This document shows, piece after piece, positions 152-28,192 of a stretch of 64,000 nt of DNA. The notes under the pieces were generated by a model that saw only the letters and a program-made list of their open reading frames with translations, did no database searches and had not been told where the DNA came from. The DNA is taken from IMG/VR virus record IMGVR_UViG_3300037400_003528, positions 64,001-128,000 of that record. One strand, written 5' to 3'. The position numbers and the translations under genes were made by a program. Source of the stretch: a virus. Position 1 is the stretch's first letter, and every line of letters starts with the position of its first letter.

Positions 152-1168
152 ATGGCAAACAAAAAAATAGTTCCAAAAGAACACCAAGATATTATTATTG
201 ATTTTTATGTAAATAAACAATATGGAATACAAAAAGTTATAAAAGAATTAAAAAAAATAGGTTTAAGTTATGGAGAAAGAGTAATAAAAAGGATTCTTCA
301 AGAAAATAATGTCCATATTCGTAATTTTAATGAAGCTAAAGTAGGAAGATATAAAATAGAAGTTCCTAAATAGCTTTAGCAAGAAATAATTGAATTATAT
401 TAGAGAGGATATGGATTAGAAAAAATTGTAGAAATTTTAAATACGTCTTTTTCTTTTGATAAAGTAAAATCTATTTTAATTGAAAATGGTATTCATATTA
501 GAAATTTACAAGAAGCTTCTTAGGTAAAGGTTATACCTGATTTAAGAAAATATTCTATTAATGATAATTATAATTTTCAAAGTCATAATGGAGCATGGGT
601 TTTAGGAATGTTTGCTTCAGATGGTTATTTACCAATTACTAAAGGGGCTAAGAATCGAATAATTTTAACATTACAAAGAAGAGATGAAGATTGTTTATCT
701 TTAATAAAAGAAGAATTATAGTATACAGGACCTATTAACCAATATAATTCAACTTTAGGGTATCCTAATTCTTCTCTTGCTTTTACTTCTTATAAAATTA
801 GAAAAGAATTTGAAAGTTTTGGTATTGTAAATGCTAAAACATTTAAATTAAAACATCTTCCATAGAATATAAAAGATGAATATATATTAGATTTTATTCG
901 AGGTTATTTTGATGGAGACGGAAGTGTTTATGAGAAAAGAGGATCTATAGCTTCAAGTTTTACTTGCGCTAACAAAACTTTTTTAGAAGATATAAAGAAA
1001 GTTTTATTTTAGAAGTTAAAATTAGAAGGAGGGTCTATTTCCTTAAATCACAATGTATATTCTTTAAAATATGGAAAAGAGGATACTTTAAAAATGTGTT
1101 CTTTCTTTTATGATAATAATTATTTATCTCTTCCTCGAAAAAAGAAAAAATTTAATGCTTTAAGATAA
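152..1168 (+). CDS. LAGLIDADG homing endonuclease (double-motif), 338 aa with 7 in-frame TAG read as sense
   Basis: Two LAGLIDADG motifs are readable: 'WVLGMFASDGYL' and 'ILDFIRGYFDGDGSV'. The frame is continuous from ATG 152 to TAA 1166-1168 only if TAG is translated. Confidence 0.8.
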
Positions 1169-3728: not shown

Positions 3729-4464
3729 ACTTTTATATTTATCAGGAAACGATATTCCTTTTATAGAAGCTAAAGTAATTATTCATCAACCTACTATTAA
3801 AGAAATTGCTTACATAGGAGAAAAATCTTTCTTTACAGGATGTTAGTTTTTAAATTTTTCAAAAGACAATTTAGAAGAAAAGGACAAAATTATTTCAGAA
3901 AAATTAAATGATTTTGAAATATTAATGAAAATGATAAGACAAAAAGATGCAGTAACTAAAAGTTATAAAGTATGTATGTAGATGGTATTAACTTTAATTT
4001 TTCCTTAGTATAAAATAGATTTTTTACCGTTAAGTATTAGATTGGTAAAAGATAATGAAGAATTTTTTATAGATAAGGATAATTTTGATATATTTAAAAA
4101 TATATTACAAAAAATGTTTTGTTTATATCAAAATAATAATTCATCTAAATACAATCCTGGCGGACCGCAGGCGAAAGCAATTGTTGAAAAATTTAGATAG
4201 AGAGATAGAAAATTAGCAAAATTAAAAAGGCAAGGGGCTGAAGTAGATTAGATTAATATTTTATCTGAGTATATATCTATTTTAACGGTCGGTTAGAAAA
4301 AAGATATGAATTAGTTATTACATTATACTGTTTATCAATTATAGAATGAAATCCGCCGATTTAGATTAAAACAGAATTATGATTTATATATTAAAGCTAA
4401 ATTAGCGGGCGCACAAAATTTATAGGAAGTTAAAAATTGGATGGAAAGAATTTCCACCGATTAA
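3718..4464 (+). CDS. hypothetical tail-assembly/structural protein (248 aa, ~11 TAG)
   Basis: ATG 3718 overlaps the previous gene. The frame was verified line by line to TAA 4462-4464. Confidence 0.55.
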
Positions 4465-4485
4465 AATTTTTAAGGAGGAAAAAAC

Positions 4486-5517
4486 ATGAAGTTTGGTGTA
4501 CGCGAATGTGCAAATATTGTTTTCCGTGCAAAACAAGAGACTGTTATTGGAACTTCAAGATTCCATGTTGGTCAACCAGTACTTTATATTGATACAGCAA
4601 CTACATCTTCAATGGAACAAGCTAGTTCAACTGTATACGCGCAAGGTGGCCGCGGTAACTCACGTTTAATTGCTTGGGAAGGTGATAAAACTCTTACATT
4701 TACTGTTACCGATGCTCTTATTTCACCTGTTTCTTTAAGTATTTTATCTGGAGCAGGTCTTGTAAAAGAGGGTAGTCAGACTGTACATGTGCATGCTACT
4801 ACTGCTGCAACAATGACTGTTTCTGGACAAATTGGTACTATTGATTTAACTGATGCTCTTGTTGAATTTGGTCCTTTAACTGGAGAGAATGCTATTTCTA
4901 TTGATGCCGGTACTGATGCTCCTATTTTTATTATTAGAACTGAAGATGATGGTTCTATTACAGGAGATATTGTTGTTTCTGGAAATACTCAAGAGAAATA
5001 GGTTAAGTATAATTATGATGCTAGTTCTAAAAAGGCTACATTACAGATTGGTGATCCTAAATGGAATTCTGCTAGTGGAACAGCTATTTCAGGAAATGTA
5101 AATGTATTAGTTGATTATTACGTAGTTAAGAAATCTGAAAAAGTTTCTGAAATTCAGCTTACTCCCGCCGATTTTGCAGGTTATTACTATGTTGAAGCTG
5201 ATACTCTATTTAGATCACAGTCTACTGGTGTTGATATGCCTGCTAACTTAACATTCCCTAATGTTAAAGTTCAGTCTGGATTTACTATTTCAATGGCAGG
5301 TACAGGTGATCCTTCTACATTTGATTTTACAATGGATGCTTTCCCTGGATATACTTATTTTGATAAGACTAAACAGGTTCTTTGTGTAATTCAAATTGTT
5401 GAAGATAGCTTATCTGCTACTACTTCTGGACATAGTGTAATGAGAAATGAAGCTCCTGTTGAACATCCTGATGTTTTAGCAGGTGATAGTGACTTATTTG
5501 AAAATGTCTCAGGTTAA
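4486..5517 (+). CDS. major tail (tube) protein candidate, 343 aa, 1 in-frame TAG
   Basis: Strong RBS 'taaggagga'. The reading joins ORFs 4486..5001 and 5236..5517, which share a frame across one TAG. Codon usage is GC-richer and high-expression-like. A strong terminator follows, and the gene sits upstream of the chaperones and tape measure gene. Confidence 0.55.
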
Positions 5518-5531
5518 AGATAATTAATTTA

Positions 5532-5575
5532 ATGGGAAAGGATATATAAAAATATCCTTTCCCATTTTTTGTTTT
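5532..5575 (+). terminator. rho-independent terminator (14-bp perfect stem atgggaaaggatat/atatcctttcccat + T-run)
   Basis: Perfect inverted repeat with a 6-nt loop, followed by 'tttttt'. Confidence 0.8.
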
Positions 5576-5590
5576 ATGGGAGATTATTAT

Positions 5591-6739
5591 ATGGCTGCTT
5601 TTTCTATATCAATTAATAAAAAAATATTATAGCAAATTTCTAATGAAATTGGAGATAGGACTGCTGAAGAATTGAAAGAGATTGGAGATAATCAAAGTTT
5701 ATTTTTAAAAAAGATTGCTTTAGATTATTTACAAGTTGTAGAAAAAAATAAAGAAAAAATAAAAATAATAGAAGATACAGAAAAAAAACTAAAAGAAAAA
5801 AGACATGCTTTAAATTTGAGCAAAAATCCTAAAGATCGTAAATTAGTATAGCAATATAATGAATATAAAGAATAGTTAAAAAATAGTATTCAAATAGATA
5901 CTATTTTAGATGATTTTTTTAAAGCATCCTTAATATTTAATGAATCTATTGTTTAGATTTTAACTGGAAGAAAAACAAGAATTACTATTGTAATACCTAC
6001 AGCAAACGAAGCACCTATAATTAGAGATTATAGTATAGAAGAATTATTAGATTAGAGATCTGGTGTTTCAATAATTCAAGATATTACTTCTGGAAATATT
6101 CCTAGAGTAGCGGGACGATTACAATATGATATTGAAAAAATGAAAAACGATTTTAATATTGCAATTCAAAAAGATACTATGATAAATTTAGAAGAATTAG
6201 ATGCTTTAAATGAAACTTATAATTCTGCTTTATTTGATAATTTTAATAGATATAAACCATATGTATATTGGAAGCCTTTGTCATCTGAAAAATGGTTTAA
6301 AATGAAAATTAGTGGTGGCGCAGGAGATATTTCTGAAGGGTATGCTTATTTTTATTATAAAAGTAATGAAAATAATTTTAATTTTGCTGTTCATCATTTG
6401 TATGATAATTTAGATACTTTTTTTAGAATAGGAGTAGCTTCTGTCAGTAATTTATCTGGATTATATGCAGGAGACATATCAACATCTCAATATGAATATG
6501 CTGTAAAAAGTTTACAAGCATCTTTACCAGGTTATATACAAATGATTAAAATGGCTCAAAAAATTATAAATAATAAAATAAAAGATGTTCCGGCTTTAAA
6601 AAAGATAGCATTAAAAGCTCAATATAAAAATCCTATTTAGAAGACAGGAGAAAAGGGTTTAAGAAATGTAGTTACAGAAGCATTAGAAGAAGATCTTTAG
6701 AAAAAATTAGAAACTGATTTAAAATATAATTTATTATAA
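5591..6739 (+). CDS. hypothetical tail assembly protein (382 aa, ~9 TAG)
   Basis: The frame is continuous from ATG 5591 through ORF 6140..6640 to TAA 6737-6739 when TAG is read through. Confidence 0.55.
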
Positions 6740-6811: not shown

Positions 6812-7348
6812 ATGAATTATAAAGATTTAAATCTACATATTAATAAAGATACTTATTGTATTGAAATGTAGGGGAAAAAAATTAATATTAAAAAATACCT
6901 TCCTATTAGAGATAAAAAAGATTTAATTGAAATAACTTTACAAAAAGCGGAATAGGCGGACGGTACATATAATGAAATTTTAATTGATATGTATTTTCAT
7001 TTACATCTTATTTATCTTTATACTGATATTGAATTTACAGAGGAAGATAGAGAAGATGAAATGAAACTTTATGATGAATTAGAAAGTAACGGAATACTTG
7101 AAAGGATAGTTAATAAAATTCCTGATGAAGAATATGAAATTTTAATGGATTATTTAAAGACAACACGTAAAGAAATTAGTTCTTATAAGCATAGTGCGGC
7201 AGCTATGGTACAAAAATTAATTATAGATTTACCAAAGAATGCAGAAGCCGCCGCCAAAATTGTATAGGAATTTGATCCAGAAAAATATAAAGAAATTGTT
7301 GATTTTGCTCAACATGCTAATGCAGATAGACCAATTCCTTCAAAATAA
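6812..7348 (+). CDS. putative tail assembly chaperone (178 aa, 4 TAG) immediately upstream of the tape measure gene
   Basis: RBS 'aaaggagat' precedes the start. The frame contains ORF 6989..7267 and ends at TAA 7346-7348. The call is positional. Confidence 0.5.
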
Positions 7349-7376
7349 AATTAGGGCTAAATAATTTAATTTTAAT

Positions 7377-7420
7377 CGCTCTCTTTGTATAATATACAAA
7401 GAGAGCGATTTTTTTATTTT
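7377..7420 (+). terminator. rho-independent terminator (cgctctctttgtat...atacaaagagagcg + T-run)
   Basis: 14-bp perfect inverted repeat followed by 'tttttttatttt'. Confidence 0.75.
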
Positions 7421-7448
7421 ATTTAAAATGTAGAGGAGGAGATAATTA

Positions 7449-10400
7449 ATGGCTCAACAAGGAGGGAAAATAGATTTTTAGATAGGGTTTAAAACAGATA
7501 AAACCGCTATCGAAGAAATTAAGAAAAGTCTTCAAAGTATCCAAAATATAAAAATAACTGATTTTGGAGGAACAAAAGAAGAATTAAAAGATATAAAAGA
7601 TACAGCAGCGGAAGTAGAAAGAGCCTTAAATGAAGCATTTAATCCAAATATAAAATCAATTAATTTAAAGACTTTTGATACTTAGCTAGGAAAATCTAAA
7701 ATAACGATAAATGATATATCAGAAAAATTTTCTAAACTTGGTCCGCAGGGGCAAGTGGCTTTTAGTCAAGTTGCTCGCACCGTTTTAACAACTAATCAGG
7801 AATTAAAACAAACTAGTAGCCTTGTTAATGATTTAGGAACTACTTTTATTAACGCAATGAAATATAATATTGCGGGAAGTATTTTTAGAGGTCTTACAGA
7901 AAGTATTCAAGGTGCTTTTCAATATGTTGAAAGTTTAGAAAAATCATTAACAGATATTAGAATTGTTACAGGAGACTCTCAAGAGAAAATGTAGCAATTT
8001 GCGGATTCTGCTAATAGAGCTGCTCAGGCCATTGGACGTAGTACTATGGATTACAGCAAGGCCGCACTTACTTTCTATCAACAGGGTTTAGATGATTAGG
8101 CTGTTGCTGAAAGAACTCAAACAGTACTACAAGCACAAAATATTACTGGTGCTGGAAGTGAAATGGCTGACTATTTAACCGCAGTATGGAATGGTTATAA
8201 AGTTGCAAATGAATAGGCATAGTTATATGTTGATAAAATGGCGGCAGTTGCAGATACTAGTGCTTCGAACATGAGTTAGTTAGCTATTGCTACATCTAAA
8301 GTTGCATCAACCGCTAGTGCTATGGGAGTTAATGTTGACCAATTAAATGCATCATTAGCTACTGTTATAGCTACAACACGTCAAGCGCCATAGGCAGTAG
8401 GTACTGCTTTTAAAACTATTTTTACTCGTTTAAATGATATTAAAGCTGGAACTGATGATGCGGAAATTAGCCTTGGAAATTATTCAAGTAAAATGGCGCA
8501 ATTAGGATTTAATGTTCTTGATGCAACAGGCCATTTAAGAGACACTGGATAGGTTATAGAAGAAATTGGTTAGAGATGGGATACTCTAACCAGATAGCAA
8601 CAAGTTTACTTAGCTACGACTATGGGTGGTCAAAGACAAGTTAACCAATTAATGGCTTTATTTGAAAACTGGACTACTTATAGTGAATTATTAAATACTT
8701 CTCTTTAGGCGGAAGGTACTCTTGCTGAAAAGAATAGTCGTTATATGGAATCTCTTGGTGCTAAAATGGAGAAGTTAGGTGCAGCAGGAGAACGAGTAAA
8801 AGCTAGTTTAATAGATAGTGAAAGTTTTGGTGGAGTAATTGATATATTAACTACTGGAACTAATTTATTAAGTACTTTTATTTAGGCTATAGGCGGAGGC
8901 GGTTCCGCACTTTTAGGACTTGGTGGTATTGCCACACAAGTTTTTAGCGGAGTTATTGCAAAAGAAATTAATAATGCTATTGTTAATTTTCAAAATATGC
9001 GTTTTAATGCAGAACAAACTAAAATAGAATTACAAAAAACAGAATAGTTTGGACAAATTCAAGGATTAAATAGAGAAGCTATTAATTAGATGTTATTAGC
9101 TAAAAAATAGATGCAAGGTCTTTATTCTGTGATGTCTATATAGGAACGAAATGGTTATAATGCTATTGTTGAAAGTTTAGGTAAAGCTAAATAGCAAGTA
9201 TTGATTTAGCAAGAAAAAGTTAATAAAGCTAAAGAGTATGAAAAGGCTTTAACAGATGTCGCTAATAGTTATGGAATTGATTTTTAGAAACAAAGACTTG
9301 GCGTTATAGATTATGTTGATGCTATAGATAATATGTTGAATAAAATTAAAAAAGGATCTGGAAATTTTGCAGATTTAATAGATTCAACAGAAGAATTAAA
9401 AGTCAATTTAGGCGAATTACCAGAAAGTTTAAAAAATTTATATAATCAATTAGAAAATGCTAAACATGATAAAAGTCTTTCAGAAGATTTATTAAATCAA
9501 ATAAAAAATGATGAAACTGGTACTTTTAAATCTATTTTTGATTAGAAAGAAATTGAAAAACAATTAACTGGTGCTGAAAATATAATTAGAGATAGAATAT
9601 CTAAAATTGTTCAAGAAGTAAGAAATTTAACTGATTTAAGTTTAAATTTAGATATAAATACAGCAAATTTAGAATAGGCTACAAAAAAATTAGAAGATAT
9701 AAAGAAAAAAGTTCAAGATTTACAAAATCAAATTAATCAATCTTTAAATATACGAGGTATTGTTCAAGGTATTGGAAGTATTGGAAGAATTGCTTCAGGA
9801 CTTACTTCTTTATCTAGTGGGATAAAAAATTTATTTAATGAAAATATTTCTGGTTCAGAAAAATTTTTAAAAGTTTTAACAAGTATTGGATATGCTTTAC
9901 CTTCAATTGTTTCTGGTATTACTCAATTAAAAACATTAACTCAAGCACTTTCTGTTGTAACCGTTAATGCTACAAAGGTAGCTGAAGCAAAATTAGCAGT
10001 TGATCAAACTAAACAAATATTAGATTAGAAAACTATAATATTATAGGCAGCAAGAAAAGTTGGTCTTATTGATTTAACAGCTTAGTAGGCGGCAGTTACC
10101 GCAGCAACGGAAGCTCATACAGCAGCAGAAGAAAGATTAGCTGCTGTTATGAGTTTAAATCCATTAGGAAAATATTTAATTGCACTTGCAGCTATTGCAG
10201 GGGCTATTGCATTAGTGGTTAAAGTTGTTGATTAGGTTAATATGTCTATTAAATAGGCAGATTAGGCTATTGATACTTTTAATAAAAAAGTAGAATAGTC
10301 TAATAATAAAATAAAGAATTTTAATTCTAATATAGGTTCATTAAAAGATGCAGAAGAGGAATGGGATAAATTATCTCAACAAGCTGGAGTTTATAATTCT

Positions 10401-13400
10401 ACTATTGATAACTTAACAGAATCAGAAAAACAACGCTATTTTGAATTAAGTAATTTAATTGCTGAATATAATGAAGATGCTGTTGCTGGATATGATGAAC
10501 AAGGTAATGCTATTATTGCAAACAATGAAGCATTAAAAGAAACTATTTAGTTATTAAAACAAAAACGTCAAGAATAGATTAATAATACTTATAATAGTCC
10601 AGAATATCATCAAAGTTAGAGAGGTAGACAAGAAAAATATAAAAAAGCAACAAAAAGCACTTCAGAATTAGAATCTGCTGGAAAAGATATAGTTAATTAT
10701 TTAAATAGATTAAATAATAATATGACTGATGAGCAATCGGAAATAAAAGCTCAAATAGAAGATATAATTGCTCAAGGCAGATAGGGAATTTATAAAAATA
10801 GAGATTAGCTATTAAATCTTATTGAATCTGTTTATTCTAAATTAGATTCTTCTCAAAAAGATTATTTAAATGATAATTTTAAAGAATGGTTATCTACAGC
10901 AAAAGAAAATGAAAAATTAATAGAAGATAGTATAGATGGATTAAAAGATAGCGTTTTAATTGCTTTACAAGCTACAAAAGATTCAAATTAGACTTCTATT
11001 TTTCAAAAAGCTAAATAGGCAGGTATTTCTAATATAGAAGGAATGGTTGCTGGTTATTATGAAGGATTAAAAGAACGGGGTTAGTTAGAAGGAAGATCTT
11101 CTGAAGATATAGCTAAAGAAATTAATGAACAATTAATTCAACCTATGTTAGATACTTTTGGTAAAACAGATTCTAATGGAATATCTCTTTATCAAAAATT
11201 ACTTGATAGTATTTCAAATGATGAAAAACTTCAAAAAGGAGATTTTTTAAATCTTGAAGAAAAAAATCAATATATAAAGGAATTATTAGAAAATTTCTTT
11301 CAAGAAAATTTAGATACTATAAAAGAATTATCTGGTGCTTCAGATAAAACCAAAGCAGCTTTTTAGCAATTATTTGTTAATATGTTTAATATTGACGGTA
11401 ATTTAAAAATTAACTTTGATACGGGTAAAGTTTAGGATGTTATTGTTTCAAAAATAGATACTTTAAGAGAACGTATTTCTAATAAAGTTAGAAAAGATAA
11501 TATTTAGTTAATGCCTTCTAAAGAAGAAATTGCCGCTTTATTACCTTCTGATATAACAAACGAAGAATTAGATAATATTACAGAAAGAATTGAAGAATTA
11601 ATAAATAAAACTGGTTCTTGGAGATAGGCTTTAGCTTTAGCTTTAAAAGATGGTGGAGCATTAGCTAATTTAAATACTAATTTAGATACTGTTGGATTAT
11701 TAAATAAACAAGCGGCAGGTGAAAAATTAAGTGATAAAGAGACTACTGCTTTAAATGAAGGTTTAGATACATTAAAACGTTCTTATTCAGATTTACAGAA
11801 TGAAGTTGCAATTTTAAATACAGAATGGCTCCAAGGAACAAGTCAATATGAAGATGCTTTAAGAAAAGTAAAAGGTGCTTTATTAGAAACTTTAGTACAA
11901 TCTGTTGCAGAAATTTAGGGAGAAGATTAGCGATTACAAAAACAAGAAGAAGTCAATGATAGTATTATAAATATGACTACTTCTATGGAAGATTTACAAC
12001 AAGCATGGTTTGCATTAAATCTTGAAGGTCAACAAAATGCTTTAATAAAAGTTGCTTCAAGTTATGAAAGTTGTAGAAATGAAATTCAAGCATATACTTT
12101 GGCTTTATAGGGAAGTAACGATGAAGAAAAGGCGGCTGCTGCGAATGACTTAGCTAGAGCCGCATATTCTGCAGAAAAAGGGTAGCAATATGGAATAGAA
12201 GCAGAACGTATTTCTGAATTGGCTGATGAATATGCAAGATTAGCAGCTGAAGGACAAGTAGAATATGCAGGATTAGATTAGAATGCTGAATTAGCAGCAG
12301 ATGCTGCAACTCGATATATTAGATTAAATGATGCTATTGCAGATTTACAAAAAAATTATAATAGTATGACCTAGCTTCTAAATGCTTTTGCTTCTAGTTC
12401 TCAAAATATTGGAGATATTATTGCTGATAACTCTGATGCTTATCAGTCATTAAAAAAAGATATTGCTGGTATTATTGATGTATCTGAATAGATGATGGAA
12501 AATTAGGGTTGGGGAGACTGGATTGCTGCTAATGCAGATAAAATTCAACAAGCTATGGAAGGTAGCCAAGAAGCAGTTGATGCTCTTCAAAGAAGTGCAG
12601 CTGAGAAAGCTGATGATGTTTTTAATAATATATCTATAGATGGATTATGGTCTATTTTAGATAAAGCTTATGATTCGGTTGCAGATTGGGCAAACAGCTT
12701 ACCAGAAGGCAAACTTGAAATTAATGATCTTAAATTTTTACAAGGTTTAACAGATGCTTTAGATCAAGCTGGTTATACAGCAGGCCAAATTGAAGATATT
12801 TTTAGTTTAATGGATATTGATGTTGATTTTGCAGATAAAATGGTCGATGCTGGAAATGAAATGATAGATATAGCCAATCAAACTGGTTAGTAGACACAAA
12901 AAGGTCTTATGAAAGGTGCTGTAGATATATAGACAACTTCAAGCACAGCTACCAGCTAGGATGCTGCAGAAGCAACTTAGATTATACCAAGACTAGAAGA
13001 AGAATCTAAACCACTTTCAATTCCAACTTTTAGTCCTACTGTTAGTCCTTGGGGAACTTTTTATAACCAGGTTGGAACCGCAACTCCTATTATGACAACT
13101 TATGGTGTATCTATAGATACTAAACCTGTGGAAGATATATCTAAAAAAGAAACTACTGGCACTGGTTTAAAAGTCATTGGAGCTAATAAATCTGCTGGTG
13201 GTAAAGTAAGTCATAAAAATGCTTCCGGTGGTAATAAAAAATCTAGTGGTGGTGGTAAAAAAGGTAAAGGCAAAAAAGGAGGAGGTAAAAAAGGTAAATC
13301 CTCAACTCCAAAAACACCTAAAGTTTAGAAACCTGTAACTGACAAACCCGATCGTTATCATGATGTAAATCTTAAATTAAAAGATATTGATAATGAATTA

Positions 13401-16214
13401 GATAAAGTTCAAAAGAAACAAGATAAATTAACTGGCAAGGAATTACTTAAAAATCTTGAAGAACAATTAAAATTATTAGAAAAACAAGTAGATACATATA
13501 AACAAAAAATAGAATTAGAAAAACAATAGGCGGATTAGTTACGTAACAGTTTAAGAAAATAGGGATTTAATTTTGATTAGAATGGTAATATAACTAATTA
13601 CGCTACTGGTTTATCGAAAGCTCTTGCTGATTATAATAAAGCAATAGAAAAATATAATAAGATGAGCGCGGAAGACCAGTAGAAAAATAAAAATTTATTA
13701 GATGATGCTAAATAGAAATATGAAACGATTAAAAAGAATATTTAGAGATACGATAAAATTATATCAGAATAGATTCCTGGGTTAGAAAAAAGTATTCAAG
13801 ATGCCTTAGATAAATAGACAGAAATAAATATACAAAAATTTAAAATGAAAGTAGATTTATAGTTAGATTTATCATAGGCAGAAAGAGAATTTAATTAGTT
13901 TAATAAAAAAGTTATTAAACAATTAAGAGATAATGATGTATTAGGACAAGCTAAAGCATCATTTAAAGATTTAAGTTCTTATTATAAAAGTGGATACGAT
14001 GTTATTGAAGGTTTAACTAATCAAGTTTCAGATACATTAAGATAGATTAAAAATATAGATAATAATGGTTTTTCTGCAATTTATGGAAAAGATAGGGCGG
14101 CCGCATTAAAAGATCTAAATGATTATATGGAAACTTTAATGCAAAACCTTGAAGATGTAGAAGATAAAGTTAAAGAAATTAAAGAAGCTATTTTTGATGC
14201 TATTGATAAAGCACAAGATAGTTTCGATTAGCAAAAGAAAGAATATGAATATATTTCAGATTTAATTGACCATAATAAAGAAGTAGTTTAGTTATTATAC
14301 GGATAGGACGCTTATAAAGAATTATAGAAATATTATAAACTACAAGAAAAGAATAATAACAAAGAAATGGATTTCTTACGTCGCCAAAAAGATATGTGGT
14401 ATGATAAAATGCAAGAAGAACAAAAACGTATGAATAGTTTAGATAAAAATTCTAATGCATATTATGAATCACAAGAACGCTTTGAATAGTATAAAAAGCA
14501 TTGGATGGATGCGACAAAAGAATTAAATAGTTTAATGGAATCTTCTATTGAAAATATTGTAGATAAATATTTAAATAATATAGATAAAATATTTAAAAAA
14601 TTAGAAGATAAATTAACTAATAATAAAGGTTTATAGAATATTTCTGAAGAATGGTAGCTAATAAATCAATAGGCGGACATGTATTTAGATAAAGTTAATT
14701 CTATGTATGAAATAGATAAACTAGAAAATGCATATAAGGATGCTATTGATGATAATGAAGGTAATTTAAAGGCACAACAATCTTTAAATAATTTAATGAA
14801 TGAACAGTTAAAGTATTTAAAAGATAAAGATAAATTAACTAAATATGATGTAGATAGAGCAAATGCTTTATTACAAATTTAGATTAAACGATTAGCTTTA
14901 GAACAAGCGCGCCAAAGTAAAACTAAATTACGTTTAAGAAGAGATGCACAAGGAAATTATACTTATCAATATACTGCGGATGAAGATGCTTCAAGAAAAG
15001 CACAATAGGAACTTGCGGAAGCTGAAAATAGTTTATATAATTTAACAAAATAGGCTTATAAAAATAATTTAAATGATTATTATAATACTACAGAATAGTT
15101 TAATGATAAAATTAAGTAGGTTTATAAAGATACTACTTTAAGTGCGGAAGAGCAGAATCAAAAAATTGCTATGTTATATTAGCATTACGGAAATATTATT
15201 AATGGATTAACTCAACAAAATGAAGATTTAAAGAAATTCATGATGGAAGATACATTTAATGAAATGGCTAAAATGTATAATACTGATGTTGAGAATTTTA
15301 AAGCCATGACAGATGAGTAGAAAAATACTCTTATGGAACAAATGATTCCATATTGGAAATCTGGCATCCAAGAAATGGCGGATACTGTTTCTGGCGCAGG
15401 TGGTTTTGTACCTGTCACTAAAGATGCATTTAAAGAATTAAAAGATACTACTAAAGATTATAAAGATTCATTAAAAGAAGTAAGTGAAACCGCAGGTCAA
15501 TCTTTAAATGATATTAAAAAAGGATTAGATAAAAATATTTCCAGAACAGAAAAATTATTAGATAAAAATAAATAGTTAATTAATGGATATAAAGATGAAA
15601 TTTCCGCGGTACAAGATGTAATAAATAATGTTGAAAAATTAGCAGATACTTATTAGACAGCTAAAAAAGCGGCAATAGATGCTACTAAATAGGCATATAA
15701 TTTTATTCAAATACAGAATAAAGATATAGAAAATAAAAATTCTCCTACTTCTAAAACAACTTAGCAATAGACTAAAAGTGGGGGCCAAAATATTAAAGTT
15801 ATAGATAGTAAAATGTTTTCAACAGATACAAATTTATTAATATAGTCTTTATTAAATTCTTCTAAGAAAGTTTCTTTTGATACAGGTGGTTATACTGGAG
15901 CATGGGGTAATACAGGTAAAAATGCAATTGTACATGAAAAAGAGTTAATTTTAAACAAAAAAGATACAGAAAATATATTAACTGCTATACATATTACAAG
16001 AACGTTAGATAATATATTATCTAATTTTAGTTTAAGAAATGATTTTACAAATGCTTTAACTGGTTTATCTACTTCTATGGGTAAACAAGAATTAGATCAG
16101 CATGTTACAATTTCTGCAACCTTCCCTAATGTTAAATAGAAATCAGAAATTTAGGAAGCATTTAAAAACCTTATGAATAAAGCAAGTCAATTTGCTTATC
16201 ATAATAAAAAATAA
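7449..16214 (+). CDS. tail tape measure protein, 2921 aa, on the order of 150 in-frame TAG, ends TAA
   Basis: RBS 'gaggagga' precedes ATG 7449. All seven supplied ORF fragments between 7755 and 15575 lie in frame 0. A triplet check across every inter-fragment segment found only TAG, never TAA/TGA. A TP901-like tape measure core is readable ('MSQLAIATSKVASTASAMGVNVDQLNASLATVIATTRQAP.AVGTAFKTIFTRL'). The protein has coiled-coil character and a Gly/Lys-rich insert at 13190-13320. Confidence 0.8.
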
Positions 16215-16293: not shown

Positions 16294-19200
16294 ATGGGCA
16301 GTGAGCAATACTCCAATGAATTATTATCTGCAATGTCTATAATTGCAAATAGAGCTGTTGAAACTGCTAATTATAATAAAACTATTAAAGCTACGATAAT
16401 ATAGTGTCAAGATGCAACTATAGAAAGATATAAAGTTCAATATCAAGATGGGTATTGGACTGCCTATGGAAATGGTTCAGGAGTTTCTTATACAAAAGGA
16501 ACTCCTGTCTATATTTTAATTCCAAATGGGGATATGTCTTAGCGAAAAACTATTTTAGGTAGTGTAAAACAGTTAGGGATTAATTATATAAATGTTCCAA
16601 CTTAGGAAAATAAATATTCAGAAAATGGAAATAATATTTTAACAGAACAAGAATCAAATTATGGTTTATGTTCTTATAGAAATCAAAGGCAAATAATTTT
16701 TAATGTAGCTAATACTACAAATAATATAAAAATCAATCTTAGGGCTGCTTCTGTTTATATTAAGCAATCTTCTCATTTAAAATGTTCATTTAAAATACAA
16801 ACGAAATTACCATTAGAACAACAGTATAGTGGTAATTATGGAATAATATTTTATTTAGATTTTAAAGATAGAACTACTAATGAAACGGTAACAAGATAGT
16901 ATATTTTTGATACATATTTAATGACTGGAAATCCATATTTATTTAATAATGCTGTCACTCAAACTATGTCTTTTTAGATAGATGGACCAAGATTTGAAAG
17001 AATTTCTAAAATAGAATTATTTACAAAGGATTTTCCTCATAGAAGTATAAAAAATCATCCTGATGATATTTTTATTTTTGATTTAAATATAAAAGGAGTT
17101 ACTTTATTATCGCAAGAATAGATGGATAAAGTTTCTTTATCTTTTGTTGCTAAAAGAGGATATATTTTTACAGAAGAAGACGAAGATAATTAGAGTAAAA
17201 AAATATAGACAATTATAAGGGTGTTAGGTAAAACTGTAACTGATACAAATAGTCAAGATATAAAATTTTATTGGTTTGTTCAAAATATCAGTATTACTCA
17301 AAACAGTATTTTTTATAATAAATATGGTGGTTCTGGTTGGAAATGTTTAAATAAATATAAAGTTTTAAAAAAAGAAGAAGGAAAACCTACAAAAATTGAA
17401 TTCAATTCAGGCTCTTCTTATTTTATAATTAAAAAAGCGGATGTTTTGATTAAAAATCAAAAATATAAATGTGTAGTATTATATGGTGATACTATCCTTC
17501 AAAAAGAATTTACGATAATAAACGATGCCGCTGATTATACAATTAATATTATTTCTAATAAAGGAACTAGTTTTACTCTTGATTCTGGTTATCCTGATCT
17601 TACTTGTGAAATAAGTAATAAAAATGGAACCCCTTTAGGATTACAATATCATTGGGGAATTGTTAATTATCAGGGTGTTTTTAGTAATCTCTCTGAAAAT
17701 TCTACTAATTATAATAATTGGAAAACAGACTTAGAAGATTATAATAAATTAAAAGATGATTTAAATAATAAAACAATTTATAGAAATGGTATATATAAAG
17801 GTACAAATAAAAAAAATATTGATGTATATAATGAATTAAAAGATCAAATTAAAATATGGAATAAAACAGAAATTGTTTATCAAAATTTTATTTATCATGT
17901 AAATATTAAAAATATTGTAAACTTTAGTACATTTATTTGTACTGTTGTAGATAAAAATGCTAATGTTATAGGTTCCGCAGAAATTACGTTAATAAATAAA
18001 TCTTCTTCTAATGGCGGATATTTTTTACGATTAAATAATGGTAAACAAGTATTTAATTATAATTAGGAAGGATTAAGTCCATGTAAAAATCCAAAACTTA
18101 AATATGTAATTCCAGAATTAAGTTTTTCTTTATATAATAATGAAAATTAGGAAATAGATCAAGATTAGATTAATGCAAATAATATTAAATGGTTTATACC
18201 GAAATCTAATGATTCATTATTAACATGTAATTATGAAAATGGTAAAACAGAAGGAAATATGATAGTATATTCTGGTAGAAAAACTTTTGTTTATGGAATT
18301 TTAAATAGATATATTAAAAATCATAATATTAATAATATACAACTTTAGGTTAAATATCATGGTTATACTTTAACTGCTGAAACTAATTTTACTTTTACTA
18401 AATAGGGGTATTCTGGTACTAATGGAACTGGTGTAGTAGTTAGAATAGTTCCTATAGATGAAAATAGTATAGAAATTAATTCATTACCCTATTATACTGC
18501 TAATACTAATACGTCAAATTTTAATAAACTAAAAGTAGAAGTATATAAAGGCGGAGAACAAGTATCAACAAATAATTATACTTGTGTTTGGTCAGTATTA
18601 ATTAATAAAAAAAATAATAAAATAGAAACTACTGGTAAAACAGTAACAGCAATAACATTATCATCTTGTGAAATTATAAAAGTTGCAGTAAGTATGGAGG
18701 GTAAAACTATTTATGCAACTTTACCAATTATATATTGTAATTATGAAGGAAATGGATATAGAATATCTTTAAAATAGAATACAGGTTATCAATATGTTTA
18801 TTATGCAGAAGATGGTACTAACCCTCAATATAATAATAAATATCCTTTTACTTTTATCATTGAAAAAACGATTAATGGTATTTTATAGGATGTTAGTACA
18901 AATACAAATTTTATAAATGATAAAACTTTTCAATATTCAACTTTTGGTAATTTAACTGAAGTAGATAAAGTATCATCAAAATCCAATTCAATAAGAGTAA
19001 ATCCTAAGAGTTATTATAATGGTGATAATGTTATAAATTATATACAATGTATTGTTTTTGATTCTACAATATAGAAAAATAAAAAAGTAGCAACATGTCA
19101 AGTGCCTATTCATATGATGTTAAATAGATATGGGCATGCTGCCTTAAATGATTGGGATGGTAATTCTATTGATATTGGTAAAAATGGATAGACTATATTA

Positions 19201-20802
19201 GCACCTCAAGTTGGAGCAGGAGAAAAAGATAAAACAACTAATAGATTTACAGGAATTCTTATGGGTTCTATTAAAAAAAATAATGTAATTGAGAATGGAT
19301 TATTTGGTTATGGAGATGGAGACAGAACTATTTTTCTTAATGCTTCAAATGGAAATGCTATTTTTGGAAAAGAAGGACAAGGCCAAATAACTGTAAGTCC
19401 AACTAAAAGTTCAATTGAAAGCGGTCAATATAATTGGAGTAATGATAAAAAAGGAAAAGGGTTGAAAATAAATTTTGATAATGACAATCCTTACATTCAT
19501 TTTGGTTCTCAAAAGTTTTATGTAAATTCAAATGGTGAAATGACTGCAAGAGGCGGAGGTCATATTGCTGAATGGGATATTGGTGAGAATGATTTAACAA
19601 AAGGTAAAGTTGGTATTAGTTCTGATAATTCTGAAGATGGAAATATTGCTTTTTGGGCGGGAAATAAAGATCGTACTAAAGCCCCTTTTAGAGTTGATTT
19701 TGGCGGAGCATTTATAAGCACTAAAGGTAATATTGCTGGATGGGAAATTAATAAAAATTCTTTAACAAAAGGTAAGGTTGGTATTAGTTCTAATAATTCT
19801 AAAGACACAAATATAGCTTTCTGGGCGGGAAGTTCAGATAGCACTAAGGCTCCTTTTAGAGTTGATTTTGGCGGAAATTTAGTTATTAATTCTGGTAAAA
19901 TTGGTAGAGGATCATATCCTATTTATATTGGCGGAAAAGGGTCATATGAAAGTGGAACGTTATATAGCGGGACACACAATGTTTTAGACTCTACTGCTAA
20001 AGGTTTTTATTTAGGAACAGATGGTATATCTTTTGGTGGATTTTTTAAAATGGATGCATCTGGTGATTTAACTGCTAAAAGCGGAAAAATAGCTAATTGG
20101 AATTTTGATGCTAATGCTATTTATAATGATGAAGCCAAAAAATATAGTAAACCTGCATATACAAATGATAAAGGTGTTGTTTTAGGTAGAGGAATTTATT
20201 TTGGAAAAGGCGGTCTCCGTATGGGAGAAAATTTCCATGTAAATGAAAATGGAGATTTATATGCTAGAAGTGGATATTTTTAGGGAACTTTATATTCTTC
20301 AGAAGGTAAAATTGGTGGATGGGAAATAAAACCTACTTTATTAAAAGGTGGAAATATGTAGATTAACTCTAATGGTTCTATGAAAGGATCTAATTGGAGC
20401 ATTAATTCAGATGGAAAAGCTAATTTTAGTAATATGAATATTTCTGGTGGAACTATTTCTGGAGGTAGTAGAACAGGCGGTTCTATGTCAGGAGGAACTA
20501 TTCATCCTGGCAGTGTTGGAGTACCTGGTGGAAAAACTTTAAATGAATGGTGTAAAGATATTGTTGCTACAAGTGTAACTGCTGATTATATTAAAGGTAA
20601 AATATCAAGTATAGACATTCTTTCAGTAAAAACTCTTTCGGCACGAAAAATATTAATTGGGGGAAGACGTGGAATTGAAGTTGCTACACAAACATGGGCT
20701 GCACAAATGGTTAATGATAAACTAAAAAATTATGTAAAAAAGGGAGATATACATATACCTACTAAAGTTACTATTAATGGAGTAACTTATCATTTATCAT
20801 AA
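16294..20802 (+). CDS. fused distal-tail / tail-tip (Dit-Tal-like) protein, 1502 aa, ~30 TAG
   Basis: RBS 'aaaaaggagg' precedes ATG 16294. Every line 16321-20761 was read in triplets with only TAG interruptions. The frame contains ORFs 17221..18066, 19261..20283 and 20380..20802. It ends at TAA 20800-20802. Confidence 0.6.
19573..19905 (+). repeat. tandem ~165-bp (55-aa) direct repeat inside the tail-tip gene
   Basis: Two ~85%-identical copies encode '..NSLTKGKVGISS.NS.D.NIAFWAG...TKAPFRVDFGG'. The repeat also creates the spurious minus-strand ORFs 19403..19600 and 19560..19844. Confidence 0.6.
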
Positions 20803-20826: not shown

Positions 20827-21057
20827 ATGGAAACAATAAACATTAATAGTGAACAATTTAAAAGAAATCTTTAGAATTTAATAAATTCAAGTAATTTACC
20901 AATTTCTAATATATATTATATAATATCACTTATACAAAAGGAATTGGAATATGAATATTATACTATATTAAATTCAGAATTAGCATAGCAATCACAGAAA
21001 CAAGAGGAAGAAGAGGTATAGAATGAGTAGAGTAACGAAAGTATACAAGAAAACTAA
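20827..21057 (+). CDS. hypothetical small protein (76 aa, 4 TAG)
   Basis: RBS 'aaaggagc' precedes the start. The frame is open to TAA 21055-21057. Confidence 0.4.
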
Positions 21058-22798
21058 TGGTCAATTTGGATAGCCTGTTCCAATAGGTACTTCTTCTTAG
21101 TATGTAACAGTAAATTCAAATGGGACTACTTTACAACAAATATTAGGAGATGTAAATGAATTACAGGAAAAATTAGAATAGGGTGATTTAACATCTTCTA
21201 TTTTAAAAGTTGCGGAATCTAGTGGTGTTAGTATAGGAGAAGCTACCGCAGAAAAATCTGGATTAATGTCATCTACAGATTTTAAAAAGATTAATCCTGT
21301 AATATTAAAATAGGGTGATGATTTAAATGATATTAAATAGATTGGTTGGTATAGAGTATCAACAGATGTTAGAAATAGACCAATTGCTAATTATGTAGGT
21401 TGGTTATAGGTTCAACAATTAGGAAGTGGAAATTTTTTTCAAAGATTTAGAGGATCAAATTCAACAGGTACTTATTACGAAAGACTTTATACAACATCTA
21501 ATTTATGGTCGAACTGGAAACAGCTAGATGCTCCTATGACAGGAGCAACTTCTGCATCTAACGGAAGTGTAGGATTAGTACCTGCTCCTTCTGCGGGAAA
21601 ACAAAATTCTTATTTACGTGGAGATGGTACATGGCAAATTCCACCAAATACTTGGACCGCCAATACATCAACAAGTGCAGGATATGTTGCTGCTGGATCT
21701 GGTCATAATGATAAAGTTTGGATGACAAATAGTTCTGGAACTCCTGCTTGGAGAACAATTACTACCATGACTGGTGCAACTAAAACTACAGCAGGCACTA
21801 AAGGATTAGTACCTGCGCCTGGAAGTAATAAAGAAGAATATCTTTTATCTGGAGCGGGAACATGGATTGCACCTCCTAAGAATAGTTCTGGTACAACTAG
21901 TGGGTTGTTATTAACACAAAGTCAATTTAATACTATTTCTAGTAGAAGTAAGAATTTTAGTAATCATGCTTTAGATTTAATACCAACTTCAAATGCCAAC
22001 TATGGTGGTTATATAGATTTTCATTATAATGGAGCTACAAATTTTACTTCTCGTATTGTAGAAAATACAAAAGGTAAAATTAAAGTTTCTAATGATTTTG
22101 AAGTTGGTGGAGATACTGCTTTAAATAAAACAACAGCAGGAGCAACCATTGTATCTTCATTAACAAATAATGGAAATACAAATCTTAAAGGAACAACCTC
22201 TTTTAATGGTTCTGCTAATTTTAATAAAACAGCTATTTTTAATAAAACAGTAACAGTAAATGATCTTATTGATGTAGTTGGAACTATTAAAATCCCAAAT
22301 CGAGGAAGTGGTAATTTAGGTTATTACCCTGTTGCTTCTTCTGCGGCAGATACAGGAGAAGTTTATATGTTAAATTCTTATTTAGGTAATTGTTTAGAAA
22401 TATAGGGAAACTGGGGAGTAAAAAAAGGAAGAACTGTTAAAAGATTTTATATTACAAATACTTCTGATATAAGATTAAAATAGGATATAAAGGATAGTTC
22501 TATTAGTGGTTTAGATTTAATTAATAAAATTAAAGTTCGTGATTTTAAATGGAAAGAAGACCATCGACATCAAAAAATTGGTTTTATTGCAGATGAATTA
22601 GAAGAATTAGATCCTAATTTAAGTTTAGGTGAAAAACCTTATAATGAATAGGGGCATCCTATATATAAACAAGTAAATAGTTTTTATTTACAAGGATATG
22701 AAGTAAAAGCTATTCAAGAATTATCTTCTCAAAATAAAAAATTATTAGAAAAGATTGAGAAATTATAGAAAGAAATAAAATAGCTTAAAAATAAATAA
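21023..22798 (+). CDS. tail fiber protein with C-terminal intramolecular chaperone / peptidase-S74-like domain (591 aa, ~14 TAG)
   Basis: Gly-rich fiber repeats are present ('[24 protein letters not shown]', '[24 protein letters not shown]'). The C terminus reads '[51 protein letters not shown]', typical of the auto-cleaving chaperone domain. The frame was verified to TAA 22796-22798. Confidence 0.8.
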
Positions 22799-24963: not shown

Positions 24964-25436
24964 ATTATTAACCTTTCTGCATATTGATTATTACTAGCTA
25001 AATTTACACCCAATGTTTCATCATAATGTTGCTCTTGATTAGGTATAAATCTTCCATATTTTATAATTATATTATCAAAATTTTTTAAAAAAGTCAAATA
25101 CCATTTAATTTCTTCTTTATTATATCCAGTATAGATTATTATATCATCATTAGATACCTATCTAAATTTTTTAATAAAATCTAGTACCTAATAGAAAGAA
25201 TCAAATGGTTCTAATCCTTGAAAAACAATAGCTTCAGAAATATTATTATTTAAATAACTATTTATAATTTCTTTTATAGGTATATTTATTTTCTTTGCGG
25301 AAGCTAGGTCTGAGTTCTGACAGACCTGTTTCCCGCATTCTTTATCACATTTAAATGTGCAACAAGGCATCATTATTGTCATACAAGGTTTTTTATAATT
25401 TATAAAATCTTCATTTATAATATCAATTACTTTCAT
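24960..25436 (-). CDS. nrdG: anaerobic RNR activating protein NrdG-like radical-SAM enzyme (158 aa, 2 TAG)
   Basis: A Cys cluster 'CTFKCDKEC' and 'FQGLEPF' are present. The gene sits immediately downstream of nrdD with an ATGA overlap. Confidence 0.7.
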
Positions 25437-27637: not shown

Positions 27638-28192
27638 TTATTTTTGTTCATTTCGAATAATATGAAACAAATCAGATATAATAGGTTGTACCTAATTTGT
27701 TTCATTTAAAATTACTTTATAAGAAAAAGGAAGATTTTTAAAATCTTCTTTATCAGTAAAAAAACGTCTACATATTTCTGAACAATCAGGAGAACTCTAT
27801 CGTGATAATTGTCTTAATAATCTAATTTTATCAGAACAATGTATCATAATAGGTATACACTAGATATTCTATTTCTATAAAATCTAATTAATAGCTCTTG
27901 GAGAAAAAACACCAATATTAATTTTATCTTCTTTTAAATCATCTATTGATGTACCATACCACCAGTTATTGAAACATTGAGACTATATCCACTATTTGTT
28001 TTTAAACTACTAAATAGTTAAAAAATGATAATGGACATTCTATTTTTCATATACTCGCGGAGGTCTTGTAGTAGATGTAATAATCTTATGTAAATGAATT
28101 TTTCCATAAATAGTTTCAAAAAGTCTGGAAAGAATATAATCCTTTCCAGACCCTGCTGGTCCACATAAAGCGATAATTTTATATTTACTCAT
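27638..28192 (-). CDS. guanylate-kinase-like dNMP kinase (184 aa, ~9 TAG including a TAG-TAG tandem)
   Basis: P-loop 'GPAGSGKD' and 'TTRPPR' motif are present. The start overlaps the DNA polymerase stop. Confidence 0.7.

Follow-up and report, generated by a model that had tools for sequence, protein, structure and literature searches.

The subject of this analysis is a single open frame at positions 7449-16214 of a 64,000-nucleotide stretch of viral DNA (positions 64,001 to 128,000 of IMG/VR record IMGVR_UViG_3300037400_003528, the whole stretch being referred to below as the window), which is predicted to encode a tail length tape measure protein (TMP) and which contains 92 in-frame TAG codons. 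In the clade of phages to which the window belongs, TAG is probably read mainly as glutamate (Glu), as judged from alignments, codon composition and the tRNA genes of relatives, and not as glutamine (Gln), the residue that translation table 15 places there.

A single TAG-recoded gene

With TAG taken as a sense codon, the gene map of the window has the following outline:

7449-16214, plus strand: TMP gene, ATG start, 2921 sense codons and a terminal TAA, with 92 in-frame TAG read as sense
8010-8630, plus strand: PF10145 PhageMin_Tail domain of the TMP (amino acids 188-394)
89-22798, plus strand: TAG-rich structural block
22843-59550, minus strand: replication and nucleotide-metabolism block, mostly free of TAG
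from 59.6 kb, plus strand: second TAG-rich block

No in-frame TAA or TGA occurs inside 7449-16214, and the preceding in-frame TAA lies at 7443; under translation table 11 the same DNA falls into pieces, the largest of which is only 111 amino acids (aa) long. At the base composition of the window (GC ~0.27-0.31, about 28%), arithmetic gives a chance of ~1e-90 for 2921 codons free of TAA and TGA, and the frame cannot be accidental. With TAG counted as sense, open frames of at least 100 codons add up to 67 kb across the window in place of 38 kb (six frames, overlaps counted); in-frame TAG is found as a sense codon enriched in late genes, and of the 41 genes retained in the map 34 end in TAA, 7 in TGA and none in TAG.

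Five recoded relatives carry 53-111 TAGs each in the same intact TMP frame, at largely different positions, and the standard-code homologues of VRE9_3 (2673 aa) and MT835936 (2939 aa) are uninterrupted single open reading frames collinear with that of the window. Since these collinear standard-code genes are uninterrupted and the window frame holds no TAA or TGA, 7449-16214 is one continuous TAG-recoded gene and not several, as the first-pass annotation had proposed while allowing that an overlooked TAA or TGA, or TAG acting as a genuine stop, would overturn it. The reading in which TAG acts as a stop, everywhere or in places, and the frame is reduced to fragments or a pseudogene, could draw on the short table 11 pieces and on the lack of a suppressor tRNA within the window, but it is effectively refuted: 92 of the 92 internal stops are TAG, homology spans them over the whole length, relatives with TAGs in largely other places keep the frame intact, every mapped gene ends in TAA or TGA, and relatives carry a tRNA with a CUA anticodon.

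Besides the PF10145 match (E=9e-25, 88 bits against a cut-off of 33), the protein matches a number of PHROG families named "tail length tape measure protein", with profiles of 2249-2675 positions. By these domain matches and by the order of the surrounding tail genes, given further below, the product is a tail length tape measure protein, the identity proposed at the outset.

TAG behaves as glutamate in alignments and in codon composition

For alignment TAG was masked as X, and the window TMP was compared with the five recoded relatives and the two standard-code TMPs. Glu proved to be the most enriched residue opposite TAG (3.3-fold, window TMP and seven others). Between the window and the relative L005 the codons opposite TAG are GAA in 45 cases, TAG in 27 and CAA in 15, and TAG pairs with GAA 3-4 times more often than with CAA; were TAG to mean Gln, TAG-CAA exchange would be synonymous and CAA should therefore dominate, yet it is GAA that does. 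A likelihood test with empirical substitution profiles of all 20 amino acids, taken from the same alignments, returned Glu as the best model, with Gln worse by 152 log-likelihood (lnL) units for close pairs and by 98 for the standard-code outgroups, and a mixture fit assigned Glu 0.67-0.73 and Gln at most 0.07. The standard-code outgroups have Glu at 22-35% and Gln at 6-10% of the positions opposite TAG; in other genes of the tail module the proportions are 31% Glu and 5% Gln and, against VRE9_3, 35% and 10%.

Residue conservation can be read in the same way. With TAG scored as Glu, TAG sites show the same identity as ordinary Glu sites (0.67 against 0.64, and 0.47 against 0.48), whereas scored as Gln they fall short of ordinary Gln sites (0.44 against 0.66, and 0.20 against 0.46). 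The C-terminal "SEI*EAF" of the TMP aligns with "EIE.AF" in both standard-code relatives. In the six recoded TMPs the summed fraction of E and TAG is nearly constant (0.097-0.105); as TAG climbs from 0.018 to 0.038, E alone drops from 0.084 to 0.059, Q staying flat. A comparison across the 41 window genes, in which alignment plays no part, gives a Spearman coefficient of -0.49 (p=0.001) between TAG fraction and Glu codons and no correlation (0.04) between TAG fraction and Gln codons.

The same tabulation was applied as a control to phAss-1, in which TAG has been published as Gln (Babkin et al. 2023, PMC10607447). There Gln was the best model and Glu was worse by 47 lnL units, from which it follows that the method is not biased towards Glu and that the two lineages differ. 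In phAss-1 itself Lys is the residue most frequently found opposite TAG (20%, against 13% for Gln), with the Lys model 13.8 lnL units behind Gln, and the decoding of that phage may deserve a closer look.

An independent test is provided by a second gene of the window, for which columns were counted over 102 homologues of at most 56% identity:

27638-28192, minus strand: guanylate-kinase-family gene with 11 TAG
TAG column 70: near-invariant Glu (99 of 102)
TAG column 132: near-invariant Glu (102 of 102)
TAG column 167: near-invariant Glu (101 of 102)
TAG columns 62, 106 and 108: Glu-majority
TAG columns 51 and 111: Asp-majority
TAG column 103: Gln-majority (63 of 102)
TAG columns 61 and 67: variable

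None of the 11 TAG columns is an invariant-Gln column among these homologues. Aligned with solved guanylate kinases, the TAG at residue 70 falls on the Glu in their conserved motif F-[IL]-E-[WY], and two related phages with a TAG-free kinase have GAA, GAG or GAT in nine of the 11 columns and CAA only at 103.

A table-15 translation, on which the first-pass annotation relied, is thus most likely wrong at the 92 TAG positions of the TMP, where TAG behaves as Glu and not as Gln. The calculated net charge of the protein is about -156 with Glu at these positions, compared with -64 with Gln. The public protein collection puts Q at TAG: its sequences used here (those with P numbers) carry Q there and are untranslatable under table 11.

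A candidate suppressor tRNA and the proposed decoding mechanism

ARAGORN and Rfam found no tRNA in the 64-kb window, and when relatives were walked outward from both window ends in IMG/VR, 27 + 16 + 4 loci likewise contained no tRNA and no Rfam match. In relatives a tRNA array is located ~3 kb beyond the second late-gene block, and by synteny that of the window phage should lie ~20-25 kb beyond the right end of the window. A complete CUA tRNA (GGCUCGGUGGUC...GGGCUACCA) is present in a 15-tRNA array on a 140-kb metagenome contig of a clade relative, alongside tRNA-Glu(CUC) and tRNA-Glu(UUC). It shares with the tRNA-Glu(UUC) of that array acceptor pairs 1-5, including the wobble pairs G1.U72 and U4.G69, as well as U8-G9, the D stem G10-U11-C12/G23-A24-C25, G26 and a 4-nucleotide (nt) variable loop. 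Its first 12 nt are identical to tRNA-Glu(UUC) at 10 of 12 positions and to the tRNA-Gln of the clade at 5 of 12, and the ends of the clade suppressor are the tRNA-Glu-like G1.U72...A73. The apparent tRNA-Glu likeness is supportive rather than decisive. The CUA tRNAs of phAss-1 have A1-U72 or U1-A72 (one having a U1/C72 mismatch) with G73, ends that would fit Gln.

Most Bacillota lack glutaminyl-tRNA synthetase (GlnRS) and make Gln-tRNA by way of a non-discriminating glutamyl-tRNA synthetase (GluRS) followed by GatCAB, which recognises U1-A72 of tRNA-Gln. It is likely that the clade uses a viral code, TAG = Glu, not described so far, in which a CUA tRNA derived from tRNA-Glu would be charged by the GluRS of a GlnRS-less Bacillota host and, having G1.U72, would escape transamidation by GatCAB and so stay Glu-charged. 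The real TMP would then be ~92 charges more acidic than its code-15 translation, and the confinement of TAG to late genes may delay their expression until the suppressor has been made. If TAG is indeed Glu here, the meaning of the recoded stop has diverged within one phage group, Phassvirus lineages reading it as Gln.

Some further observations concern the tRNA arrays. Beside the CUA tRNA in the array of one relative (L170, IMGVR_UViG_3300001487_000194, positions 10668-10739, minus strand) there is a tRNA with a UCA anticodon, of the opal-suppressor type and called "SeC" by ARAGORN; TGA still ends 7 of the 41 window genes. A tRNA-Lys(UUU) in another contig (L164, IMGVR_UViG_3300021399_000006, ~26-35 kb) was set aside, as it falls within a foreign-looking GC-rich segment (positions ~2200-11000 of L164, locally above 50% GC in a ~30% GC phage contig) that may represent either an insertion or a chimeric assembly. 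Three distinct CUA tRNAs occur in phAss-1 (L010 44443-44611 and L011 37745-37821): one of 91 nt with a long extra arm, one Trp-like with the U1/C72 mismatch and one adjoining tRNA-Glu(CUC).

Weighing the readings of TAG

Several observations weigh against decoding as Glu. Length-weighted regression over the window genes is equivocal (slope on TAG -0.33 for Glu and +0.36 for Gln), because it is dominated by the Gln-rich TMP; Gln is 2-3 times commoner opposite TAG than at ordinary Glu sites; column 103 of the kinase has a Gln majority; the window contains no tRNA, so that the CUA tRNA is known from relatives and not from the genome of the window itself; and overall tRNA similarity does not discriminate the isotype. 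Moreover, Borges et al. report only TAG-to-Gln and TGA-to-Trp among phages whose code differs from that of the host, a restriction explained in the literature by GlnRS and tryptophanyl-tRNA synthetase (TrpRS) being easily hijacked, and no report of TAG-to-Glu in phages was found in open-access papers and bioRxiv preprints.

These points can be assembled into a reading in which TAG is Gln, as in standard code 15, and the excess of Glu opposite it reflects replacement of Glu by Gln at tolerant surface sites under selection for TAG. Every TAG reassignment so far reported in phages with a code unlike that of the host is to Gln, the distant relative phAss-1 is Gln-like both in our control and in Babkin et al., and Gln is somewhat enriched opposite TAG. 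We nevertheless regard this reading as decidedly improbable, since it leaves the 3-4-fold preference for GAA over the synonymous CAA unexplained, would halve the identity at TAG sites relative to ordinary Gln sites, would bring Q plus TAG to about twice the Gln content of TAG-poor genes, would place Gln in three near-invariant Glu columns of the kinase and has to contend with the excess of Glu over Gln in the standard-code outgroups. An ambiguous Glu/Gln meaning, produced by a Glu-charged suppressor that is partly transamidated by GatCAB or by two suppressors, is improbable as well. It would account for the minority Gln signal (the mixture weight of ~0.07, the Gln-majority kinase column, the Gln excess opposite TAG), and the three CUA tRNAs of phAss-1 show that suppressors can coexist; however, CAG-to-TAG transitions under pure Glu decoding would also give a Gln-like minority, the Gln weight is 0 in the fit against the standard-code outgroups, and only one CUA tRNA was seen in the clade arrays.

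Internal anatomy of the tape measure protein

Along the TMP the following parts, all on the plus strand, can be told apart:

8865-8966, plus strand: Gly-rich hydrophobic segment 1 (aa 473-506)
9864-9923, plus strand: Gly-rich hydrophobic segment 2 (aa 806-825)
10137-10253, plus strand: Gly-rich hydrophobic segment 3, strongly hydrophobic and transmembrane-like (aa 897-935)
12996-13220, plus strand: conserved, non-helical-looking Pro/Thr/Gly-rich segment "TYGVSIDTKPVE...KETT.T.LKV.GA.KS.GG.VSHKN" (~aa 1850-1924)
13221-13328, plus strand: Gly/Lys-rich basic low-complexity linker (aa 1925-1960), at relative position ~0.65 in the family
13350-16211, plus strand: C-terminal module of 954 aa, running from the DRYHD motif to the last residue and collinear with VRE9_3 and MT835936
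15861-16211, plus strand: C-terminal end domain, conserved, in which "DTGGYTG.WG..G..A.LHEKE.VLN..DT" (nt 15879-15998) precedes "..FPNV....EIE.AF.NL.N.ASQ.A"

Similarity to VRE9_3 and MT835936 is collinear in three regions, namely the N-terminal 600-980 aa, aa ~1950-2550 and the last ~115 aa, while conservation is low in the middle of the protein (~aa 980-1850); a self-BLAST of the TMP revealed no internal repeats. The Pro/Thr/Gly-rich segment is present in all six recoded TMPs aligned and in neither of the two standard-code relatives. The Gly/Lys-rich stretch that follows it also occurs in six of the six recoded TMPs, as well as in most database homologues, the best 40-aa window of it having a median G+K+R content of 68%; VRE9_3 and MT835936 have a short mixed-charge linker at the same boundary, and one homologue has (TSTPK)n in its place. 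The invariant-looking DRYHD motif at aa 1968, ~54 aa past the start of the stretch, opens the C-terminal module, the length of which has a family median of 973 aa (range 919-1184 aa). The low-complexity Gly/Lys peptide noted by the first-pass annotation at 13190-13320 is therefore real and close to the place given (13221-13328), though it is no odd insert: judged from the aligned homologues it is a conserved, composition-constrained linker of the clade at a fixed module boundary. The DNA encoding it has four A6 runs, at which no frameshift or slippage product is evident, the -1 frame closing at once and the +1 frame after 33 codons. The linker would most likely act as a flexible basic hinge between two modules and is possibly a processing site; on infection the TMP would be expelled first, and its hydrophobic segments may help in crossing the cell envelope.

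The C-terminal end

The "GGYTGAWGNTG" motif begins at aa 2811 (nt 15879), and a profile of 13 C-termini has 23-24 invariant columns, with Gly, Thr, Trp, Lys, Asp and Asn in a short motif. Its best match in the PDB is lambda gpH 727-766, "FATGGFTGTGG..GIVHRGEFVFTKEAT". In the solved lambda tail gpH's C-terminal region forms a trimeric coiled coil above gpI in the tip complex and is the first part to leave on ejection (PMC11101478). By this analogy the C-terminal region of the window protein would be the end of the TMP that is anchored in the tip. Against this it must be said that the gpH match is marginal (E=0.024 over 40 residues), that the TGGYTG motif is missing in about half of the best 120 homologues, that an AlphaFold2 model of the domain, built from fragments of the 83% identical homologue P0001, is unusable (predicted local distance difference test 54, predicted template modelling score 0.25), and that tail length and tip anchoring both rest on analogy, the phage being known here from sequence alone. 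The final ".FPN[VA]..." segment is kept in 80 of 121 sequences (the best 120 homologues and the window).

Two other fates have been considered for parts of this protein. The first-pass annotation saw in the C-terminal ~200 aa a possible wall-active or adhesion region, an idea that has some appeal in that many TMPs of phages of Gram-positive bacteria carry lysin domains and several SPbeta-type TMP records are annotated as "lytic transglycosylase". A search of Pfam with this region at E-values up to 10 gave no match, however, and whole-protein Pfam and PHROG scans placed no lysin, peptidase or adhesin family on it; the only solved match is the C-terminus of another TMP, and the conserved columns form a short motif and not the pattern of a catalytic domain, which together make a cell-wall-degrading or adhesion domain highly improbable and leave a conserved TMP end motif instead. 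A match to phrog_971 ("endolysin") at aa 603-944 was rejected, as it covers a low-complexity helical region and not a catalytic domain. Proteolysis at the Gly/Lys stretch, with a virion TMP of ~210 and ~105 kDa in place of an intact 320-kDa chain, is unlikely. Lambda gpH and T5 pb2 are processed, which counts in its favour, as do the position of the stretch, exactly where the variable N-terminal part of ~1950 aa meets the conserved C-terminal module of ~950 aa, its compositionally disordered and basic character and the fact that the 3123-aa TMP of phage Tsamsa ran as two bands of 280 and 100 kDa (PMC3903500). On the other hand, nothing links the Tsamsa TMP to a Gly/Lys linker, no protease site motif was identified, and the standard-code relatives lack the stretch.

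Protein length and predicted tail

A search of a large protein database with the TMP gave 2288 matches. Among the best 120 of these the median length is 2975 aa and 72 of the 120 measure 2900-2999 aa, with identities down to ~35-40%; many of them lie on contigs of 137-147 kb. The protein, called exceptionally long in the first-pass annotation, is long only against textbook phages, and ~2900-3000 aa is normal within its own family. Cultured relatives have TMPs of up to 2673 aa (Enterococcus VRE9_3), and there are precedents in the literature: Babkin et al. 2023 (PMC10607447) describe gut phages akin to Enterococcus phage EF1 that are TAG-recoded and have TMPs of 3149-3209 aa, and Bacillus phage Tsamsa has a TMP of 3123 aa and a measured tail of 440 nm (PMC3903500). 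The window TMP adds a new member to a kind that is known and has been published before.

Scaling from Tsamsa, at 0.141 nm per residue, gives ~412 nm for the window TMP. Other siphophages have 0.126-0.176 nm per residue, values that correspond to a tail of 368-514 nm. An expected tail of ~400 nm is thus a reasonable prediction by analogy, in keeping with the figure of roughly 400 nm or more first suggested. In the manner of lambda, T5 and Tsamsa, the tail-tip complex would hold the C-terminal end while the tube polymerises around the extended TMP, whose ~2920 residues would thereby set the length of the ~400-nm tail.

In a 4113-aa homologue (P0063) the first ~190 aa of the C-terminal module are the unit that has been multiplied, being present as four tandem copies of a ~180-190-aa "D.YHDIN..." module, and a 3578-aa homologue (P0111) has two such modules in tandem; in both, the TMP and presumably also the tail were lengthened by module duplication. 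The narrow spread of lengths despite divergence, together with the duplication in P0063, fits a ruler whose length is under selection.

The tail module and other genes of the window

Around the TMP gene the window contains the following features:

4486-5517, plus strand: tail tube protein (phrog_2729; the orthologue in L004 has PF27173 YomU_Tube)
6812-7348, plus strand: YomO-family protein, candidate tail assembly chaperone (phrog_30570), immediately upstream of the TMP
7374-7420, plus strand: terminator-like hairpin, 17 bp with a T-run, in the gap between the YomO-family gene and the TMP start (one found against 0.1 expected in shuffles)
7433-7441, plus strand: strong Shine-Dalgarno sequence GAGGAGGAG, 7 nt before the TMP ATG, read directly from the sequence
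16294-20802, plus strand: presumed distal tail or tip protein, 1502 aa with 19 TAG, downstream of the TMP and in a position conserved in relatives
21023-22798, plus strand: tail fibre with a C-terminal Peptidase_S74 chaperone domain (domain match)

The order tube (YomU), YomO-family gene, TMP, 1502-aa protein and S74 fibre recurs unchanged in VRE9_3 and five metagenomic relatives, so that the tape measure identity is borne out by an SPbeta/EF1-type tail module as well as by the family matches. The Pfam families YonB, YomW, YomV, YomU_Tube and YomO, which derive from SPbeta, are found on the upstream orthologues in L004-L009, the window genes being 82-100% identical to their L004 orthologues; the 1502-aa protein had no family match. 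One feature expected of many tail modules weighs against the assignment: a programmed -1 frameshift chaperone pair of the G/GT type was not found upstream of the TMP, where the spacing from the upstream gene is only 100 nt and the alternative frames close in 3-26 codons. Such pairs are common but not universal, and their absence does not exclude membership in the TMP class. Within the TMP gene itself an internal programmed frameshift, which the first-pass annotation had suggested looking for, is not evident either. The hairpin at 7374-7420 and the consensus Shine-Dalgarno sequence suggest that the TMP may be transcriptionally attenuated or under separate control.

Other parts of the window are of interest in their own right. 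A LAGLIDADG homing endonuclease gene (152-1168, plus strand; phrog_4645, PF14528 in relatives; 7 TAG) is situated inside the structural module; it is 94-99% identical in L004, L007 and L008 and absent from L005 and L009, while the flanking genes of L007 and L008 reach no more than 62-66% identity. The endonuclease gene thus resembles a mobile gene that has lately been spreading. In the minus-strand block the highest TAG density (17 TAG) belongs to a 314-aa protein (44018-44962, minus strand) in which a membrane anchor at the N-terminus is joined to a coiled region rich in Gln and Glu and to a C-terminus of GIY-YIG-like character ("GIYKITNK..GDIYIGQS"), a recoded gene within an otherwise standard-code early block. 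The NrdD of L165 (positions 3805-6555 of Cattle_ERR2019377_scaffold_1186659) is 1028 aa long and has an Intein_splicing match, compared with 650 aa for the NrdD of the window (25433-27385, minus strand), which points to an intein-containing allele in L165. Both in the window and in close relatives of it, the ~37-kb opposite-strand replication block (22843-59550) lies between the TMP and fibre genes on one side and the second late block on the other; in the more distant, 139.6-kb IMGVR_UViG_3300035501_000484 (L016, L146) the two late blocks are only ~24 kb apart, and this difference in spacing suggests a large rearrangement within the group.

Relationship to described phages

When deposited phages were searched at the nucleotide level, the TMP gene matched nothing and the replication block gave no more than trivial matches. 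The predicted phage belongs to a ~140-kb, non-contractile-tailed group of SPbeta / Enterococcus EF1 / "Agate" type, and its probable host is a rumen or gut Bacillota (Firmicute), judging from the strong Shine-Dalgarno sequence, the cultured relatives on Enterococcus, Enterocloster and Bacillus, and the cattle sample names.

Among the closest are the Enterococcus siphophages EF1, EF5, H1 and VRE9_1-4 (~134-142 kb; TMP e.g. XAG97442.1, 2673 aa; phrog_34405), which share with the window the syntenic series phrog 29637, 6123, 4051, 2729 and 30570 followed by the TMP. Their TMPs are of comparable length and have a collinear N-terminal ~600 aa, the DRYHD module and the TGGYTG/FPNx end; they differ in using the standard code, the gene actually stopping at TAG, in having only ~25-27% identity and in lacking both the Gly/Lys-rich linker and the conserved segment before it. 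MT835936.1, a human-faecal contig, has a TMP homologue of 2939 aa without internal stop, which like that of VRE9_3 stops at TAG. Phassvirus (phAss-1, BK046881 and BK025033; the "Caudoviricetes code 15 clade", PMC10607447) comprises human-gut phages of ~133-136 kb that belong, like the window, to the broad EF1 group and have TAG-recoded late genes, TMPs of 3149-3209 aa and a similar N-terminal TMP domain. Unlike in the window, the TAG of phAss-1 is Gln-like and its CUA tRNAs lack the tRNA-Glu-like G1.U72...A73, and the match to the window TMP is limited to the N-terminal ~470 aa at ~30% identity.

The "Agate" clade (Borges et al. 2021/2022) is probably also among the closest described systems, with ~130-155 kb genomes, animal-gut sources, a bidirectional GC-skew pattern, structural and lysis genes recoded in several modules, and standard-code replication genes, all of them points of likeness to the window phage. 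The name of one relative of the window, Cattle_ERR2019377_scaffold_1186659, is in the style of that dataset. Borges et al. report only TAG-to-Gln and TGA-to-Trp, whereas TAG in the window behaves as Glu. Tsamsa (vB_BanS-Tsamsa, PMC3903500), a giant siphovirus of a Firmicute with a very long TMP, is likened to the window phage by TMP length and not by homology, having the standard code, a temperate lifestyle and a 169-kb genome. Lambda gpH (PDB 8IYK chain H) resembles the window TMP near the C-terminus, where both have [FY]-x-TGG[FY]TG and then hydrophobic-His-x-x-E-x-V, but it has 853 aa against 2921 and no other detectable similarity. The role of gpH as a ruler is classically established.

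Significance

The tight length conservation of this TMP family and its module duplication make it good material for studying how tails as long as ~400 nm have their length set. What is new is the decoding, a finding drawn largely from the 92 TAG codons of this gene, and it matters more than the TMP gene itself. If TAG is Glu, a third synthetase, besides GlnRS and TrpRS, could be co-opted by phages that recode their stops, and the choice of amino acid would be tied to the way in which the host charges its tRNAs, as in Firmicutes without GlnRS. Code-15 annotation would then be systematically wrong for the clade, by 92 residues and ~92 charges in the TMP of the window, and public code-15 translations would carry the wrong residue at thousands of positions.

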